Of a DNA stretch of 54,481 nucleotides, positions 9,685 to 25,119 are shown in pieces. This DNA comes from Moniliella sp. 'wahieum' (lineage: Eukaryota). Every line of letters begins with the position of its first letter. Position 1 is the first letter of the stretch. Below the pieces are notes generated by a model that saw nothing but the letters and a program-made list of their open reading frames with translations, did not search any database and was not told where the DNA came from. The stretch lies in assembly GCA_003971905.1 (NCBI GenBank), contig RSEE01000068.1, positions 62,001 to 116,481 of the forward strand. Reading direction: 5' to 3'. A program made the position numbers and the translations under genes.

Positions 9685-9724
9685 TAGCATCCGCAGCATG
9701 TAGCATCCGCAGCATGTAGCATCC
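9685..9724 (+). repeat. 2.5 copies of the 16-bp unit TAGCATCCGCAGCATG, followed by an ~18-nt poly-C run (9731-9748)
   Basis: Read directly: units at 9685-9700 and 9701-9716, partial unit at 9717-9724. Confidence 0.9.
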
Positions 9725-9756
9725 AGGCCACCCCCCCCCCCCCCCCCCACCTCCCC

Positions 9757-12081
9757 ATGTCCCTCGCCTCCCCCCTCAGCGCCGTGGCCGTCGCGACAAC
9801 TACCCCGTCGCCCCCCGCCCCCCCTGCGCGCCACCACCACCTCCCCGCTCTGCCCGCACCCCACTCGGCGTGCCCGCCGCCCCACTCGGCACCCTCGCCG
9901 CAACCAGAGCCAGCTGCACAACACGCGCCGGACACCCACCACGCTTCCTTGGCCCACGCCCTGGCATCCGCCCAGCTGGTCGCGCCCTCGGTGTCCTCGT
10001 GCCGGCCGTGGTGCAGCCCCGCGCTGCCCCTGCGCTGCTCACCCGCCCCCCTCGCGCCGGCCGCATCGGGAGGCGGGTGGGTGCCGAGCGTTGGGCCGTC
10101 GGTGGCGTCGGTACCGCTTAGCTTTGGTCCGGTTCCGTCGCTCGGCCCGGACCTCGCCCTCGCCCTGCCGCCCGCGGCGAGCGGGGTGGGAAGCGGGCTG
10201 CCACTGCCTGAGCCCAGTCCCGCACCTGCGTTGCTTGCTGTTGATGCGTGCTCGACGCTGGAGGGCGAGGCGCGGGCACAGGCGACGGCCATCATCCATT
10301 CCCTCGTCACTGCCGCCTGGCAGTTGGGTTGGGACCGGACTACGGTCGCCAGCCGCATCACCGAGCAACTCAATCAGCGCCTGGGCCGCTCTTGGTCGAC
10401 GATCGTCGGGCCGTCGTTTGCGTTTATGTGCGGGAGCGGCCGCACAGCTTGCTCAACGTCCGTACGTGTGCGCCTCGTTGATTTGCTTGTTGCGTGTATT
10501 GTGTGTGTGTGTCGTGCTGGGCAAGGGTTGACTGTGTACATGCGTGACTAGGGATTGGCGACTGGTGGGTGGCCGCGTGGAAGGGCGAGGTGGGCGTGGG
10601 CAAGTCGAACAATAAGGAGGTGGAGTGTACCGTGTCAAGGGATCCAGACCGAAGTGAGCAACAAGGTGATGGAGGTGGTGCGAGACTCGATGGCGCAACA
10701 AGCGTCCCTGGTCGGTGCCGAACTTACGTACTTCCTCGCACATACTCCAACGGCTTCACCACTCCTCGGGCCCGGCTGGACCTGGTACCCGAGACGAATG
10801 TCAGTCTCTACACGCAGTTCCCGTCGGCCTTCTGTTTCCGTGCGGGCGAACAGGATTGGACCGTGTGGAACGAGCGGGACGCCAGCACGCATTCCCTCGG
10901 CTCCCTCAGCACCCTTGCTTCCGGCATGGTCTTGACTGGGACGGTGTCCGTGACGTCCGTGACTTTAGTCTGTCCGGCTTGTCGGCCTCGCAGAAATCGT
11001 ACGCCACGTCGTCAGCCTCGACGACGCTGGTGCAAAAGTGCAAAACTACGTGGCGAGCTACGCGCGCAAGTGCAAGCCGGGCGGGAACGGTGCAGATTGG
11101 CTCGTCGCACATGACTGATGCGTCGTATCACAATGCGGTATTGGATGTTTCCCTCGCGGCGATCGCCGAAGCGTCGGCGACGGTGGACAAGCAACAGGCC
11201 ACCACCCTTGTCACCAACCGTCTGCGTACCCTCTTTGGTCCGGCCTGGCACGCCCACATTGCCACCGACACCTTTGTGCCGGTGAATGCGCCGGCGCTGC
11301 AGGTGCTCACCTACCGTCTGGACGACAAGTTTGTCACGCTCTGGCAAGCGCAAGCCACCGCAGTGCAGACCACCTCCGAACCCGAGACGGAATGGGAATG
11401 GAGATGGGCCACGCGCAGCCCTGCAGCACAATAACAATGGCAGCAGCCTAACGTCCACCCACCAGGCCCTGCAGCACAACAAGCCTAGCCTGCTCAAACA
11501 GGCAGCGGGAGTAGCTGGTGGAGCTGCGATGGCCGGGTTGGGGTATGGACTGTACAAGCACCATCAGCATACGACCACAACGACCAGAACCCTCCCCCCG
11601 CTCAGCCGGATCTGGATACAGTCCACCAAACCCTCAATACACCACACGCACCCAAACGGGACCCAGCACGACCAGCGTTGACGCCCCCGGCACCGTGGCC
11701 GTTGGAACGTTGGCTGCGGCGCACAACGCCATCCGGGTCGAGAATCTACGCTGGCGGCAGCCGAGCAGGCCGTGCTGCTAGAGGTGGCGGCGGAAGCGGT
11801 GGCGTGGCACTCGATGGCCGCGCGCACGTTTGCGCTCTGGCTCGAGTCGGCGCTGGACCGGACGATGAAGTGGGATGGGTGGCACGTTGTGGTGGAACGT
11901 GGCGAGTTTTGGCGCTTCGTCCTACCCGGACTACCGCGAGGCGCTGAACCGCATCCGCTTTCGCTGGGACGACAAGTACGGACGGTGTGGCAAGGCGCGC
12001 AGTCCACGGGCCAGGGCCAGGGCCGGGGTGTCGTGGACGCGCTCCGCGCACCTCGGTGACGGATACGTTTGTGTGGAGTGA
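9757..12081 (+). CDS. Protein with about four tandem dynein light chain (LC8)-like domains (paralogue A); intron 10462-10551; frameshifted
   Basis: Repeated helix-helix-'G..W.h.h.G'-beta pattern of LC8: 'VASRITEQLNQRLGRSWSTIVGPSF...IGDWWVAAWK'; 'VSNKVMEVVRDSM...LLGPGW...FRAGEQDWTVWN'; 'VQIGSSHMTDASYHNAVLDVSLAAI...VTNRLRTLFGPAWHAHIA...LTYRLDDKFVTLWQA'; 'LLEVAAEAV...WLESALDRTMKWDGWHVVV...FRWDDKYGRVWQ'. Confidence 0.65.
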
Positions 12082-13316
12082 GCAGGTGCCGAGCGGGACG
12101 GAGTGGACGGGGACGCAGAAGGGGAACTTGCTCCTCCCCCGCTCTGGTGTAGGTTCGGTTGCGGCTCGGTGTGGGGCTCCGGTTCAGCTGGATCAGAATC
12201 GGGATCGGGATCGGTTAGCTCGTCCGACTTAGCGTCCTCGTCCAACTTTACAGCTTCCACCTGGTGGTCAAGTTGTAGTCTGTCTCTATCCTCCGAGTCA
12301 TGCACGATGCGCTTTGCGTCATCTCGAGGAAACAAATGTCCCTCTCTCTCTCTCTCTTCTTCGCCCACGTCCAAATCATCTATAGCACCACAGCTTTTCT
12401 CCAAGTTCCTCTGCCCTGCCCCGATTTGTCATCATTCCTGGGCCACAATAGGGCGAATACATTGGTCAACTTGACAGCTTTTCCACACTGGTCTTCCTGG
12501 TCGCTTTGTTATCATCTCTCATTTCCCTCCAGGGCCGAGAAGAGGTAGCAATAGACGTGTTGGTACAAAACGCCATATGACGGTGTAGGTATAATCCTCG
12601 ATGGTTATTGTACTGACAGACGGAGAGTAAGGCAGGCCGGGACAGGCAGTGTGAACAGGCACGTGTCTCCTCCCCAACACTCTCAGTGTTCTCTGTATGA
12701 TTTAGGGGGCTGGGTGGTGTGTGCGCTGCGGATGGCCTCTCGGGAGGGGTCGAACACAGCACCGGTAGGGCAAGGCTTCTCTGCGCTCAATCGCTGGCCT
12801 TGTGCGAGCAAATGTGCGATCCAAGAGGGGAGATGGGATGCGATCTATTCCAAGCGGTGGGGGTCATGAATATATCAGTACTCCGTGGGCGGAGCGCAGA
12901 CTGGGCCCGTGCCCGCCAGACGCCCAGCGAGGCCGCCCACCGCACGGTTGTTTCTCGGCACATGTGGAGTGTGCTGGGGTGCCTGGGTGGCGCAGTGCTC
13001 CCACCAAGGAGAACCGAAGAGCGGCTGACGTGCTGCCGTGCCAGCCGTGCGCTTTGGCTTCGCTTGGCCCCTCGTGCTCTCTGCCGAACGATCCCTTAGG
13101 CCGTACCCCCCCCCACCGCCAGCATACTAGCCTGCCCTTCCCCACCGGAAGATGGAAGCTTAAGCACACACACATCCTCTGGCCCCCAGCCCCTCTCTCT
13201 CACCCCCAGCCCATCTCTACATCGCCTATCCGTTTTGCGCATGCGGGATTAGTAGCTGCTGTGCGTCGTGCGCTCTTCTTGCTCCGTCGCTCGCACCCAA
13301 TGCGTAATAAAGTGTC

Positions 13317-13323
13317 TATATAA
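13317..13323 (+). promoter_or_regulatory. TATA box of paralogue B
   Basis: TATATAA ~140 bp upstream of ATG 13463, followed by a pyrimidine-rich leader in GC-rich DNA. Confidence 0.5.
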
Positions 13324-13462
13324 GCCAAAGCACAAGCCTGTTCCCGCCCCCCACCCCTTTCCCGCAGCCCTTTCCCCCCCCTTCTTCCACCGTTGCAAGC
13401 GTGACCACTCGCGTCCTACCACCGCGCACGTCCCATCTACTACCCCTCTCGCCACCATTATC

Positions 13463-15478
13463 ATGTCCTCCTCGCTTTCATCTTCGCTGTCCATCACCGT
13501 GTCCACCGTCGAGTCGACGGTGCAGGAATCGCTGACGTCGCTCGTGACCGCCGCGCTAGCGCGGCTGAATGGCGCGCCGCTGCTGGAGCGCACGCGTGCC
13601 GAGCTGGCGCGGTACATTATCGCTACCCGCCGAAGCGCGCCACGGACTGTTTTGGCACTTCGTCATGGGCAGTGACTGGGTGTACGCGTCTCACGAGAGC
13701 GAATGCGACTGGGGCACGGTTGGAAGGCGTGCTGGAGTACCAAGGCGAACCGATCAAGTTACCCTGTGGCAAACCAAGTGGACCGGCGCGGCGGGCACAG
13801 GGGTGCCGGGTCCACCCAGTTCACCGCCTCGACCCTCCCGGGCCCGATCCAGTCCCGCCTCGTGTCCTGATCCAACAGCTGTACAGCCTGCATGGCGCCC
13901 AGGCCGCTGCTCTCGCCCCCGTCTTTCTCGCCGACAACCTCAATGCCAGTTTCGGTTCGGGCTGGGTCGTCGTCGTCGGCACAGCAGCGGCGTCGTTGCC
14001 GAGCAGCGTGTATGCCACGTTCGTACTTTTTCTTCATTCCGTTTCATTTCTTTGGTGTCTTCCTGCCTTACGCCAACCTTGGCATACACTGACCTCGTTT
14101 GCACCCTATCGACGCTCCCACAGAGATTGGCAAGGACGTGTTCACGCTATGGAAAGCCCCGGGCGGGAGCCAGGAGGAAGAGACTTCGGTGTACCTGACT
14201 GGGACGCGCTTTGTCCGCCACCACCCATCCCTTCTCCTAGCTCCATCCGACCCCTCGCAGTATCGACGTGGTCGTACCCTCGGTCCAGCCGTGCCGCAGC
14301 TGGGTCCCCAGCCGGTGGCTCCGTCTGTTTCTACAACGTCTGTGGAAGTGCAGCAGGTTCCCCAGGTGGTCTCCAGCCTGCTTCAGCCTGCACCTCAGCC
14401 TTCTTCCAGCCCAGTCCGCAGCCTGCCCCGCAGCCATCTTCCACCCGGCTCCCGCTCCGCAGCCGGCGCCTGAGCTCACCACCCAGGTGTCAGATCTCCC
14501 AGCCCGTTCCGCAGCCTGCGCCACGGTCTATCCCGCAGCAGCTTGCGCCGCAATCCAGTTCTCAAACGTTCGTGGGGGTGCCTGCGACGCTGGCCTCCTC
14601 CCGCGGTTCCGACGACGCAGACGCAGCAGTCCGAATGGTCCGAGCTGCACACTTCGATCCAACACTCGCTGGTTGCGCCCGAGGCGTCGGTGGACAAGCT
14701 GCGTTCGTCGATCGTGATTGAGCGTACGACGCTCGCTGCGTCCGAGCAGAGCCAAGTGATCAACCTTGTGATTGCCACCTTGCTCCAGCACATCTCTGCG
14801 GCAAGACCACGTCGCCTGCGGACTTGGCGGTGCTGAAGCAAACGCTTTCGACGCAGCTGGATGGATGGCAAGTGCTTGTCGGCCCTACGGCTCGCACTCC
14901 GTAGCGATGCCAAGAACTTCTGGCGTTCTGTACGTTTTTCCCATACTCTTTTCTGCTTGCTATGCGCCCCCGTATTGACTCTGTGTGGGCAGCCATCGCG
15001 GCTACTACCTCGCGCTTGTCCGCCCCTCGCGGAGCACCATCAAGGTGTCTCTCACGACGACGACCGTGGGCGAGAAGGCTGTGGAGCAGGTGGGCATTGT
15101 GGAGCAGGCGGTGGATGGACAACCGTCGGGCCAAGTCAAGGTGGTTGCCTCGGACTGGAAGACGGCGAACGACCAGGTGTCGCGCGCCTGTACGGCATCA
15201 TTGGCGGCGCGCTCTTGTCGCACAACAGCACCTGCTTGCCCTGGACGAGCTGGCGCACTACCTGGGCCAGCGGCCAGTGCCGCGCTCGGCGCTGGCTGGA
15301 CGCACAGGTCTCGGAGCAGCCGTTTGCCCCGACCATAGCCTCGGTGTTGGGCGCGAGCTATGTTGTGGTCGGCGCAGGTGGGGGGCAAGACGTTGCATGT
15401 GGTGCTGTACATTCGGCGCCCGCCCCATCTGTGAAAGGGCGTGTTTGGGCGGTTGGATCCATGGGTGTCTACACATGA
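13463..15478 (+). CDS. Protein with about four tandem LC8-like domains and a central Gln/Pro/Ser-rich linker (paralogue B); introns ~14023-14123 and 14930-14992; frameshifted
   Basis: 'VQESLTSLVTAAL...ELARYII...EARHGLFWHFVMGSDW...VTLWQT'; 'FLADNLNASFGSGWVVVVG...IGKDVFTLWKA'; 'IERTTLAASEQSQVINLVIATL...LKQTLSTQLDGWQVLVG'; 'VKVVASDW...LDELAHYLGQ.ASAALGAGW'. Confidence 0.6.
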
Positions 15479-15945: not shown

Positions 15946-17264
15946 ATGGCCGACGACCGCCCCTTGTCGTCGACAACGGCACCGGCTTCGTCAAGGCTGG
16001 CTATGCCGGCAGCAACTTCCCCGCCCACATCTTCCCCTCCATTGTCGCCGCCCCATCCTGCGGTGTCGAGGAGCGCGACCACGTCGATTCGAGATCAAGG
16101 ACATCATGGTGGGCGACGAGGCCGCCGCCGTGCGCAACTATCTCCAGGTCTCCCAGCCGATGGAGCATGGTGTGGTCAAGGACTTTGCCGACATGCGCCA
16201 TGTGTGGAACTACACCTTTGACGAGAAACTCAAGGTCGACCCCCAGGGCCGCAAGATCCTTCTGACCGAACCCCCGATGAACCCCAAGCGCAACGCGAGG
16301 AGATGTGCCAGATCATGTTTGAAGAGTATGGGTTTGACGGCGTGTATGTGGCGATCCAGGCAGTGCTCACCCTCTATGCCCAGGGGCTGCAGACCGGCGT
16401 CGTCGTCGACTCGGGCGACGGCGTAACCCACGTGGTACCCGTGTACGAAGGGTTGCTCTTCCCCACCTCACTCGCCGTCTGGATGTGGCCGGACGCGATG
16501 TGACACGCTACCTCATCAAGCTGTTGCTGATGATGCGAGGCTATGCCTTTAACCGCACGGCCGACTTTGAGACTGTGCGCGAGATCAAGGAAAAGCTGAG
16601 CTACGTCAGGTGAGTCCCCCCCCCCTCACCTCTATTCTTCTCCTGCACACCCTCCTGACCCTTCTCACCAGTTACGACATTGCCATGGACAAGAAACTGG
16701 CTGAGGAGACGAAACACTGGTGGAGCAATACGAAGTAAGTAATGTGGCCCTTTCCCCTTTCCCCGCTCCCTTCTCTCGTAGCCAGAGCCCTTAATCGCTA
16801 ACGATATATTCTCTCTTCAGTTGCCCGATGGCCGCATTATCAAGGTTGGTTCCGAGCGCTTTGAGGCACCGGAATGCTTGTTCCAGCCCGAGCTGGTCGA
16901 TGTGGAGCAGCCAGGGATGGGAGAGCTGTTGTTTAACACAATCCAAGCTGCTGCTGGACACGCGTGCTGAACTGTACAAGCACATTGTGCTTTCCGGTGG
17001 TTCGTCCATGTACCCTGGTCTGCCCAGCCGTCTGGAAAGAGAGATGAAACAACTCTACCTCACGGCGTCTTGCATGGCGACGCTTCCCGTCTGCCTGGCT
17101 TCAAAATCCGGATCGAGGACCCACCGCGTCGCAAGCACATGGTGTTTCTTGGTGGTGCGGTGCTGGCCGACATTATGAAGAACCGCGAGTCGTTCTGGGT
17201 CAGCCGGCAGGAGTGGTACGAAAAGGGTCCTGCGGCGCTGGACAAGCTAGGCCGTGACGCTTAA
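15946..17264 (+). CDS. ARP2: Actin-related protein 2 (Arp2/3 complex); 2 introns (~16610-16670, ~16735-16820)
   Basis: '[17 protein letters not shown]', '[10 protein letters not shown]', '[14 protein letters not shown]', '[34 protein letters not shown]', '[21 protein letters not shown]', '[19 protein letters not shown]'. Confidence 0.97.
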
Positions 17265-24150: not shown

Positions 24151-25119
24151 CCCAGCAGGGCCGCCCCATTCTTCAAATCGTTTTACCTGCTCCCAACATA
24201 ATGATATCAGAGCGCTCTGAGCCGCTCCACTCTAGACGACGTCCAACCGTTCGCCTTCACCCACTGTGTATCCAACTTGCATCTGTACTTTGCGCATGTA
24301 TCAACTACCATGTCCGCGCGTCCCGCGTGTATCCAACTACATGACACTTCCCAATCATCATCATGATATCCTCTCTTACCTTTATACAGCCTGCAACGCG
24401 CAAAGATTAGTTCCTCCTAATATACATGCTGTACATAGGTTTGTTTTCCCTCTGAACAGGTGTAGAAGAACCCCTTGCCGTCTCGCACCAAGATCAGCGC
24501 TCAATGGCGGATAAGGACCACAACTGTGTCGTTTTCCTCGTTTCGAGTTGTCTTCGGGGTTTCTTGCGCCAGCTCCGGGCCCTCGAGAGAGGCGAGTTCA
24601 GCAGTGGACTTGGCCTGGCCCGGTTGCCATCCGTAGTCATTTCGTATGGGATCTCATTCACTTGCTTTCGCCTCTCCATTTCCAAGTGCCCTTCTTCCCT
24701 CCCTAGCCTATATGTATACCGCGCGCGTCAAAACCGATTTTCGCGCCTCTCCCTTTTTGGCCATTGGCATGCCTTGCCCACATGCATTGACCATAGTTAG
24801 TCGACTCGACAAGAACACTGCAGTAAGTCGCCCTTGCCAGGTTTTCTTCGCCCCGCTTGCCGCTGATTCCCCACCCATAGACTTGAAAGCAGAACTAGAT
24901 AGCAGATAGCAAAACAGGCATGGGGGCACTCTGTACGGAGATAGTTGACTTGCAGTCAAGTATTTTTTCCCAGGCACAATTCGCAGCCTTCTTTGGCGGT
25001 TCGGTGGCGACATAAGATTGCTTCCATCGCATTCGGTTTTGCGAGAACCGCAAGCCCTATCCTACAGTCCATTCGCTTGTTTCGCCATCTTTCCCACCAA
25101 CCGTTTGTTTGTTGCAACG

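Follow-up and report, generated by a model that had tools for sequence, protein, structure and literature searches.

A candidate intron site shared by LC8-like repeats of two neighbouring genes in Moniliella sp. 'wahieum'

A stretch of 54,481 nucleotides (nt) from Moniliella sp. 'wahieum' (GenBank assembly GCA_003971905.1, contig RSEE01000068.1, positions 62,001 to 116,481 of the forward strand), called the window below and numbered from its first nucleotide, was analysed with respect to two neighbouring plus-strand genes, A (9757..12059) and B (13463..15434), that encode chains of repeated domains resembling the dynein light chain LC8. Three of these domains (A1, B2 and B3) are each split by a candidate intron, and all three junctions fall inside one codon of the repeat. 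This three-fold coincidence of the intron site is real. Inheritance from one intron-bearing ancestral LC8-like repeat, followed by later losses, was ranked first among the explanations as it accounts most simply for three introns hitting the same codon, and we give it roughly an even chance of being correct. The new element here is intron evidence for repeat history in two neighbouring LC8-repeat genes. Taken alone, the intron argument is useful but ordinary evolutionary evidence, and it rests on a poor assembly.

The candidate introns, the sole three in genes A and B, share a set of conventional signals. Intron 1 (10462..10551, 90 nt) begins with GTACGT and ends with TAG, intron 2 (14023..14123, 101 nt) runs from GTACTT to CAG, is T-rich and has a CTGAC branch-like site, and intron 3 (14930..14992, 63 nt) runs from GTACGT to CAG; all lie on the plus strand and all have a branch-like site of the TGAC type. 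Intron 1 has a (GT)n run, a microsatellite at 10499-10512, and an alternative acceptor for intron 2 is present at 14125 (GAG). The letters at the acceptors are as the earlier note on this DNA had read them, with AG at 10551, 14123 and 14992 followed by GG ATT GGC, AG ATT GGC and CC ATC GCG, respectively. GC content was 0.49–0.52 inside the candidates compared to 0.59–0.67 in the 200-nt flanks, a dip of 0.08–0.18. The only 60-nt windows with a GC content below 0.50 inside the two coding spans were those at 13990-14040 and 14900-14910, belonging to candidates 2 and 3, and the only non-repeat GT[AG]NGT donors inside the spans were those at 10462 and 14930 together with two GTGGGT sites. Other low-GC windows and donor-like sites fell between the genes, at 12149-13290. 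The two introns of the neighbouring gene ARP2 span 61-85 nt and have similar signals. A crude donor-type scan, which missed the ARP2 introns, placed GTACGT donors at two further candidate sites.

When introns 1 and 3 were translated in the frame that encodes the strand upstream of each, stops appeared at 10479 and 14976. As intron 2 is open in one forward frame, the case for its being an intron is made by its splice signals, by the dip in GC content and by the homology of the hairpin encoded downstream. The first ~17 bases of introns 2 (14023-14039) and 3 (14930-14947) are alike save one G, and since the assembly tends to lose bases the GTACTT donor of intron 2 may really be GTACGT. The spliced junctions TCC|GG, TTC|AG and TCT|CC are unlike the usual proto-splice motif, which is MAG|R. 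All three candidates are probably short spliceosomal introns.

In order to compare the positions of the introns, the eight proposed window domains were aligned in MAFFT along with seven Pfam-validated Dynein_light domains. The split codons of A1, B2 and B3 occupied a single column. This column corresponds to residue 78 of a structure model of domain A3, where the second-last strand ends, two residues ahead of the turn in the last hairpin. The codon ahead of the split codon encodes Val in all three domains (GTC, GTT and GTT) in the frame used. The pairwise alignment of A1 with the intronless A3 crosses the junction of intron 1 without a gap, and after splicing the 17-residue hairpins encoded by A1 and B2 ranked in the top 2.5e-5 of 81,166 window 17-mers when scored with profiles that excluded them. 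Placement of the intron column is accordingly firm for A1 and B2. It is weaker for B3, where it rests on the MAFFT alignment and on spacing because the hidden Markov model (HMM) alignment misses the B3 hairpin. Under a chance model with three introns placed uniformly on the ~1,339 codons of both genes, the probability of one shared column in three different domains was 1.2e-5, or 7.9e-5 with one column of slack.

The repeats that carry the introns were compared with their intronless counterparts. Domains were stitched by coordinates from in-frame pieces, with an X for each frame break, giving 85-101 residues each. In gene A these are A1 (10237..10604), split by intron 1 and the most LC8-like domain by sequence, and the intronless A2 (10617..10889, with at least two frame breaks), A3 (11084..11365), which is the sole domain in one frame throughout, and A4 (11722..12005). 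In gene B they are the intronless B1 (13484..13781, with several frame breaks), B2 (13814..14170), split by intron 2, B3 (14690..15041), split by intron 3, and a doubtful fourth domain B4 (15132..15431) for which four frame breaks have to be assumed. All are on the plus strand. Local alignment scores were expressed as z scores relative to 300 shuffles, with reversed sequences as the control. Eight of the 28 domain pairs reached z scores of 4.4–11.6 while the reversed-sequence control did not exceed 3.2. The highest score was obtained for a pair from different genes, A4-B3 (11.6), followed by A3-A4 (10.4), the cross-gene pair A1-B2 (7.8), B1-B2 (6.9), A2-A3 (6.0), A1-A3 (5.3), A3-B2 (5.1) and B2-B3 (4.4). 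The alignments were collinear across the domain and linked seven domains, from both genes, into a single connected set.

Profiles built from the other window domains in a leave-one-out scheme (Z=1375) recovered six of the eight domains at E<0.05, among them A4 (E 2.1e-3), B1 (2.7e-3), B2 (1.2e-5) and B3 (2.9e-3, first two thirds only), with A2 marginal at E 0.38. No link of B4 to any other domain was found in either comparison (best pairwise z 1.0, leave-one-out E 250). The sequence comparisons thus support homology of seven repeats across genes A and B, as the earlier note had proposed on the strength of the introns; failure of the domains to align with each other had been named there as grounds for giving up the idea, and seven of them do align. 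Of the about eight domains given in that note, the seven linked by significant scores are supported, whereas the eighth, B4, is doubtful.

Several lines of evidence identify the repeat as LC8-like. Domain A3 was modelled by AlphaFold2 with a 6-row alignment of window pieces, used in place of alignments of many short in-frame pieces that were partly misaligned. The best model had a predicted local distance difference test score (pLDDT) of 76.4 and a predicted template modelling score (pTM) of 0.68, while the other four models had pLDDT values of 55.7-65.5. The order of its elements, strand, helix, helix, strand, strand, strand, is that of LC8. A Foldseek search of the PDB with the model resulted in 71 matches at E<=1e-3, and all of the 32 matches listed were LC8/DYNLL-type chains, with template modelling (TM) scores of 0.70–0.82 over 84–91 alignment columns and root mean square deviations of 2.1–3.1 Å among those listed. 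Domain A3 is therefore predicted to have the LC8 fold. Language-model features agreed with this, in that the clusters nearest to A3 had PF01221 in 15–18% of their members (score 0.91).

For single pieces the sequence evidence is thin. The Pfam family PF01221 was the best match of A1, to its first two thirds (10261-10425), with an E value of 6.9e-4 and 20.4 bits, below the cut-off of 29.1, and did not match any of the other 12 of 13 in-frame window pieces, including the whole of domain A3; this test was handicapped as all pieces but A3 are fragments cut by frame breaks. A profile of six window pieces retrieved 13 matches at E<=1e-3 from 1,835,955,588 representative proteins, and 12 of the 13 passed the Pfam cut-off for Dynein_light. 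The remaining match was dismissed as a false match of the tetratricopeptide repeat (TPR) type. When the 1,375 six-frame fragments of the window were ranked by an HMM built from the 12 Dynein_light proteins, the first five places went to pieces of genes A and B, and the score of A1 rose from 27.9 bits unspliced to 40.6 bits when spliced and stitched. The fold model, the Foldseek matches, the retrieval of Dynein_light proteins and the language-model features agree that the repeats are LC8-like, in line with the original description of the locus.

The same searches also returned a number of negative results. The HMM search of the six-frame fragments found no canonical LC8 gene within the window, and a weak HMM match on the minus strand at 24410-24500 was dismissed as intergenic. 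A phmmer search of the 1,375 fragments with A3 found no other domain, also with filters off, meaning that a single-sequence search is too weak for these repeats. A word-index search with A3 for longer proteins found none. The predicted complex of two A3 copies scored 0.01 relative to a mark of 0.32, a result that counts neither way.

The quality of the assembly bears directly on any statement about frame and phase, and was assessed using the neighbouring gene ARP2 (15947..17261, +), whose frame path was traced against a Tilletiaria protein. The piece at 16088-16294 (69 residues) is 91% identical to an actin-like protein of Tilletiaria anomala (P0017) and 88–90% identical to Arp2-type proteins of Tilletiopsis, Ceraceosorus and Meira; its close matches bear the name actin-related protein 2 in other sources. 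On this basis the fungus is Exobasidiomycete-like and related to the smuts. Over ~1.15 kb of coding sequence the frame slipped by -1 five times, by -2 once and by +1 never, which amounts to a loss of about 1 base per 170 nt. Such deletion-only slips look like those of a deletion-prone long-read assembly, and because bases are dropped, frame and phase statements need caution in this genome. A rough count by eye gave ~13 missing bases over the 2.2 kb of gene A and ~19 over the 1.8 kb of gene B. A reading of the two genes as pseudogenes on account of their frame breaks was rejected since breaks are about as frequent in ARP2, which is an essential gene.

With this in mind, the position of the introns and their phase have to be told apart. 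The earlier note had claimed both to be the same. Position stood, though more weakly for B3, as described above, but the phases as assembled are 1 for intron 1, 0 or 1 for intron 2 and 2 for intron 3. Intron 1 is in phase 1 (C|GG) in the frame of the preceding strand, which needs one -1 slip at ~10425, and the frame upstream of its donor was confirmed by GC per codon position (0.75/0.36/1.0). As assembled, the frame upstream of intron 2 ends at a codon boundary, and the product stays in frame only via the poor GAG acceptor at 14125, in phase 0. If one base is missing from the final 60 nt of the exon, an error typical of this assembly, the junction becomes C|AG in phase 1 with the CAG acceptor. 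The phase-1 reading of B2 scored higher, with 23.3 bits compared to 19.9 bits as assembled for the Dynein_light HMM (+3.4 bits) and a gain of 4.7–5.6 bits for the leave-one-out profiles.

As assembled, intron 3 is in phase 2 (CT|C), which leaves the product without the Ile that opens the hairpin in the reading of the earlier note. The reading with Ile is self-consistent at the junction (T|CC). It had been thought to need one indel; in fact a frame change is required on each side, or else an in-frame stop at 14902 together with one lost base. In phase 1 the B3 hairpin was matched or exceeded by 1.2e-3 of the null in the hairpin profile versus 8e-2 as assembled, and the bases directly ahead of the donor do not, by their composition, speak for the frame as assembled. 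The phase-1 reading nevertheless costs at least two more sequence errors than the assembled one.

Common descent of the shared site would involve three steps. One ancestral LC8-like repeat would already have borne an intron at the split codon, this repeat would then have been amplified inside and between genes A and B, and the intron would later have been lost from the other four or five domains. The three introns would thus be homologous, and losses rather than gains would lie behind the present pattern. The junctions that do not resemble proto-splice sites and the alike first ~17 bases of introns 2 and 3 lend support to this. The origin claimed in the earlier note, duplication of one intron-containing ancestral domain, is in keeping with a shared column beyond chance but is not borne out by a tree with supported branches, and it has to accommodate four intronless domains. 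A number of observations weigh against common descent or against the data on which it is built. A2, A3, A4 and B1 read continuously through the intron column without an intron and one further domain is undecidable, so that several losses have to be assumed. In a domain tree that left out B4 none of the 11 branches was well supported and the best tree needs three changes of intron state; a clade of A1, B2 and B3 was neither found nor rejected (cost 3.8 log-likelihood units, p value of the approximately unbiased test, p-AU, 0.20). The best-scoring paralogue of B3 is the intronless A4 (z 11.6). The bodies of the three introns are weakly alike (z 2.1–2.9 among the three), intron 2 is open in one frame throughout (open reading frame 13405-14721), and the phases differ as assembled. 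The HMM alignment stops short of the B3 hairpin, and the as-assembled 17-mer of B3 is ordinary, with 8% of the null reaching its score. Stitching of the domains crossed many frame breaks that were picked by eye, and the Dynein_light HMM is in part circular, as the proteins it was built from had been picked out by the profile of window pieces.

The open frame of intron 2 would be expected if at least one candidate, most likely intron 3 or 2, were not an intron at the exact junction, so that the coincidence came in part from frames and junctions chosen by eye. An assembly that loses ~1 base per 170 nt of ARP2 coding sequence makes room for such errors, the Ile version of intron 3 needs frame changes on both sides, the profile aligns neither version of the B3 hairpin, and base composition gives no clear frame directly ahead of the donor of intron 3. 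We nonetheless consider this explanation fairly unlikely. All three candidates combine a donor, a branch-like site and an acceptor within 63–101 nt with a GC dip, they hold the only windows below 0.50 GC in the coding spans, read-through of introns 1 and 3 meets stops, and the hairpins that result from the A1 and B2 junctions match the family profile at a level of 2.5e-5; even two shared sites would be unlikely by chance. Separate gains at the same site in three domains, for example in a favoured sequence context, would account for the differing phases, as expected of separate events, for the small amount of sequence shared by the intron bodies and for the failure of the intron-bearing domains to group in the best tree with its three changes. 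The last few exon bases ahead of each donor are similar and could mark a preferred target, but the conserved Val codon explains this likeness. Moreover, the junctions do not match the proto-splice motif, the starts of introns 2 and 3 are alike save one G, and three hits on one of ~1,339 codons are very unlikely unless target preference was strong (1.2e-5). Independent gains were on this basis judged quite improbable.

An intron older than the repeat family, inherited from the free-standing LC8 gene of the lineage, would place the ancestral state outside the locus. This is conceivable as the domains are LC8 homologues, and canonical LC8 genes do have introns near the site. The best 80 of 347 matches in a metagenome sample, which is probably mostly non-fungal and says little about this fungus, comprised 71 uninterrupted and 9 interrupted canonical LC8 loci (L010, L016, L017, L020, L027, L033 and L043-L045). 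In six of the latter a phase-0 intron follows codon 80, which is three codons past the site, and three had a phase-2 intron in codon 67, but none of the nine carried an intron in the equivalent codon (~77). The text of a paper on Aspergillus nudG (PMC2133080) does not contain the word intron. Descent from the free-standing gene is regarded as unlikely, and inheritance within the repeat family from one intron-bearing ancestral repeat is kept as the working account.

With regard to layout, gene A starts with an ATG at 9757 and ends with a stop at 12057-12059, is interrupted by several 1-nt frame breaks that derive from the assembly, and encodes an N-terminal region rich in Pro and, behind it, four LC8-like domains with Ser/Thr/Gln-rich linkers between them. 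Gene B runs from an ATG at 13463 to a stop at 15432-15434 and encodes three supported LC8-like domains as well as the doubtful B4; a TATA-like box is located ahead of it at ~13318. The two chains amount to ~737 and 602 codons with seven supported domains in all. A run of 18 C at 9731-9748, just upstream of the gene A ATG, and a 16-base unit directly repeated about twice at 9688-9722 may be simple sequence of a promoter region. An open frame of 165 residues on the minus strand at 11931-12428, with a very high content of Asp and Glu, overlaps both the spacer and the 3' end of gene A, and may be the gene for a small acidic protein or may have arisen by chance. GC content throughout the window was 0.55–0.73 per 2 kb, and the DNA is eukaryotic.

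LC8 is a homodimer with two grooves for peptides of the TQT (Thr-Gln-Thr) type and zips disordered partners together, and the Thr-Gln-Thr triplet is the anchor of LC8-binding motifs. By analogy, each domain of genes A and B may be a small peptide-binding or pairing module, and the chains may be multivalent scaffolds. Exact Thr-Gln-Thr triplets occur in frame at 11650-11658 and 14615-14623 on the plus strand, where they precede the first strand of A4 by 26 residues and that of B3 by 31, respectively, and A4 and B3 are the best-matching cross-gene domain pair. About 0.4 exact triplets are expected by chance in ~1,300 residues (hand estimate), and seven looser matches to the motif were found across all three frames of both genes. 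A long shot would be that genes A and B belong to a lineage-specific family of single-chain 'poly-hubs', grown by unequal recombination in a phase-1 intron inside the LC8 fold, with the TQT triplets as built-in ligands. If so, the amplified unit would run from the last strand across a linker as far as the second-last strand of the following domain, and the TQT ligands could let the chains bind themselves or each other, or be clamped by the ordinary LC8 of the cell. The shared intron site provides a testable clue to how the chains were built, through duplication of a unit that carried an intron and later loss of that intron, and the intron could serve as a marker that is traceable through multi-LC8 genes of relatives.

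In comparison with known systems, the window domains are most similar to LC8, DYNLL1-2 and yeast Dyn2 (PF01221). The A3 model has the same order of secondary structure and ends in a hairpin, the core pattern Gly-x-x-Trp ... Val-Gly is shared, with the Trp present in six of six aligned window pieces and seven of eight domains, and the length of 85–101 residues compares to ~89 for LC8. LC8 itself is free-standing and very strongly conserved. In genes A and B, by contrast, each chain holds three to four copies of the fold, spaced by long linkers, the identity of A3 to LC8 chains is 8–22%, and no window piece reaches the Pfam cut-off.

No close relative of the window domains was found in the protein libraries searched. 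The nearest proteins were unnamed ones from metagenomes and read assemblies (P0003, P0004, P0006, P0007, P0008, P0009 and P0012), which likewise have more than one LC8-type domain, with two Pfam stretches each. Their profile E values were 7.6e-5 to 7.8e-4 and none is a close relative. P0003, P0004, P0007, P0008 and P0012 combine two Dynein_light domains with a hydrophobic C-terminal tail, while P0006 and P0009 form a group with two or three LC8-like domains; both groups are possibly undescribed families. P0009 had a single relative among 5.8 billion proteins. P0009 and P0006 align with the window domains over the full length, so that both the final hairpin and the loop behind the first strand are covered, but these unnamed proteins have two or three domains only, unlike the window genes.

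No title or abstract found in the literature searches describes chains of LC8 domains. Flatworm tegument proteins have EF-hands joined to one dynein-light-chain domain. With this architecture they resemble the window genes in having an LC8-type domain inside a larger protein, but they differ in that a single such domain is combined with a different fold, that they occur in animals and that there is no tandem array. Tegument proteins are the subject of PMC4315118 and PMC5372573. Relative to all of these, chains of divergent LC8 folds in genes A and B would be a different use of a fold that is normally lone and dimeric.

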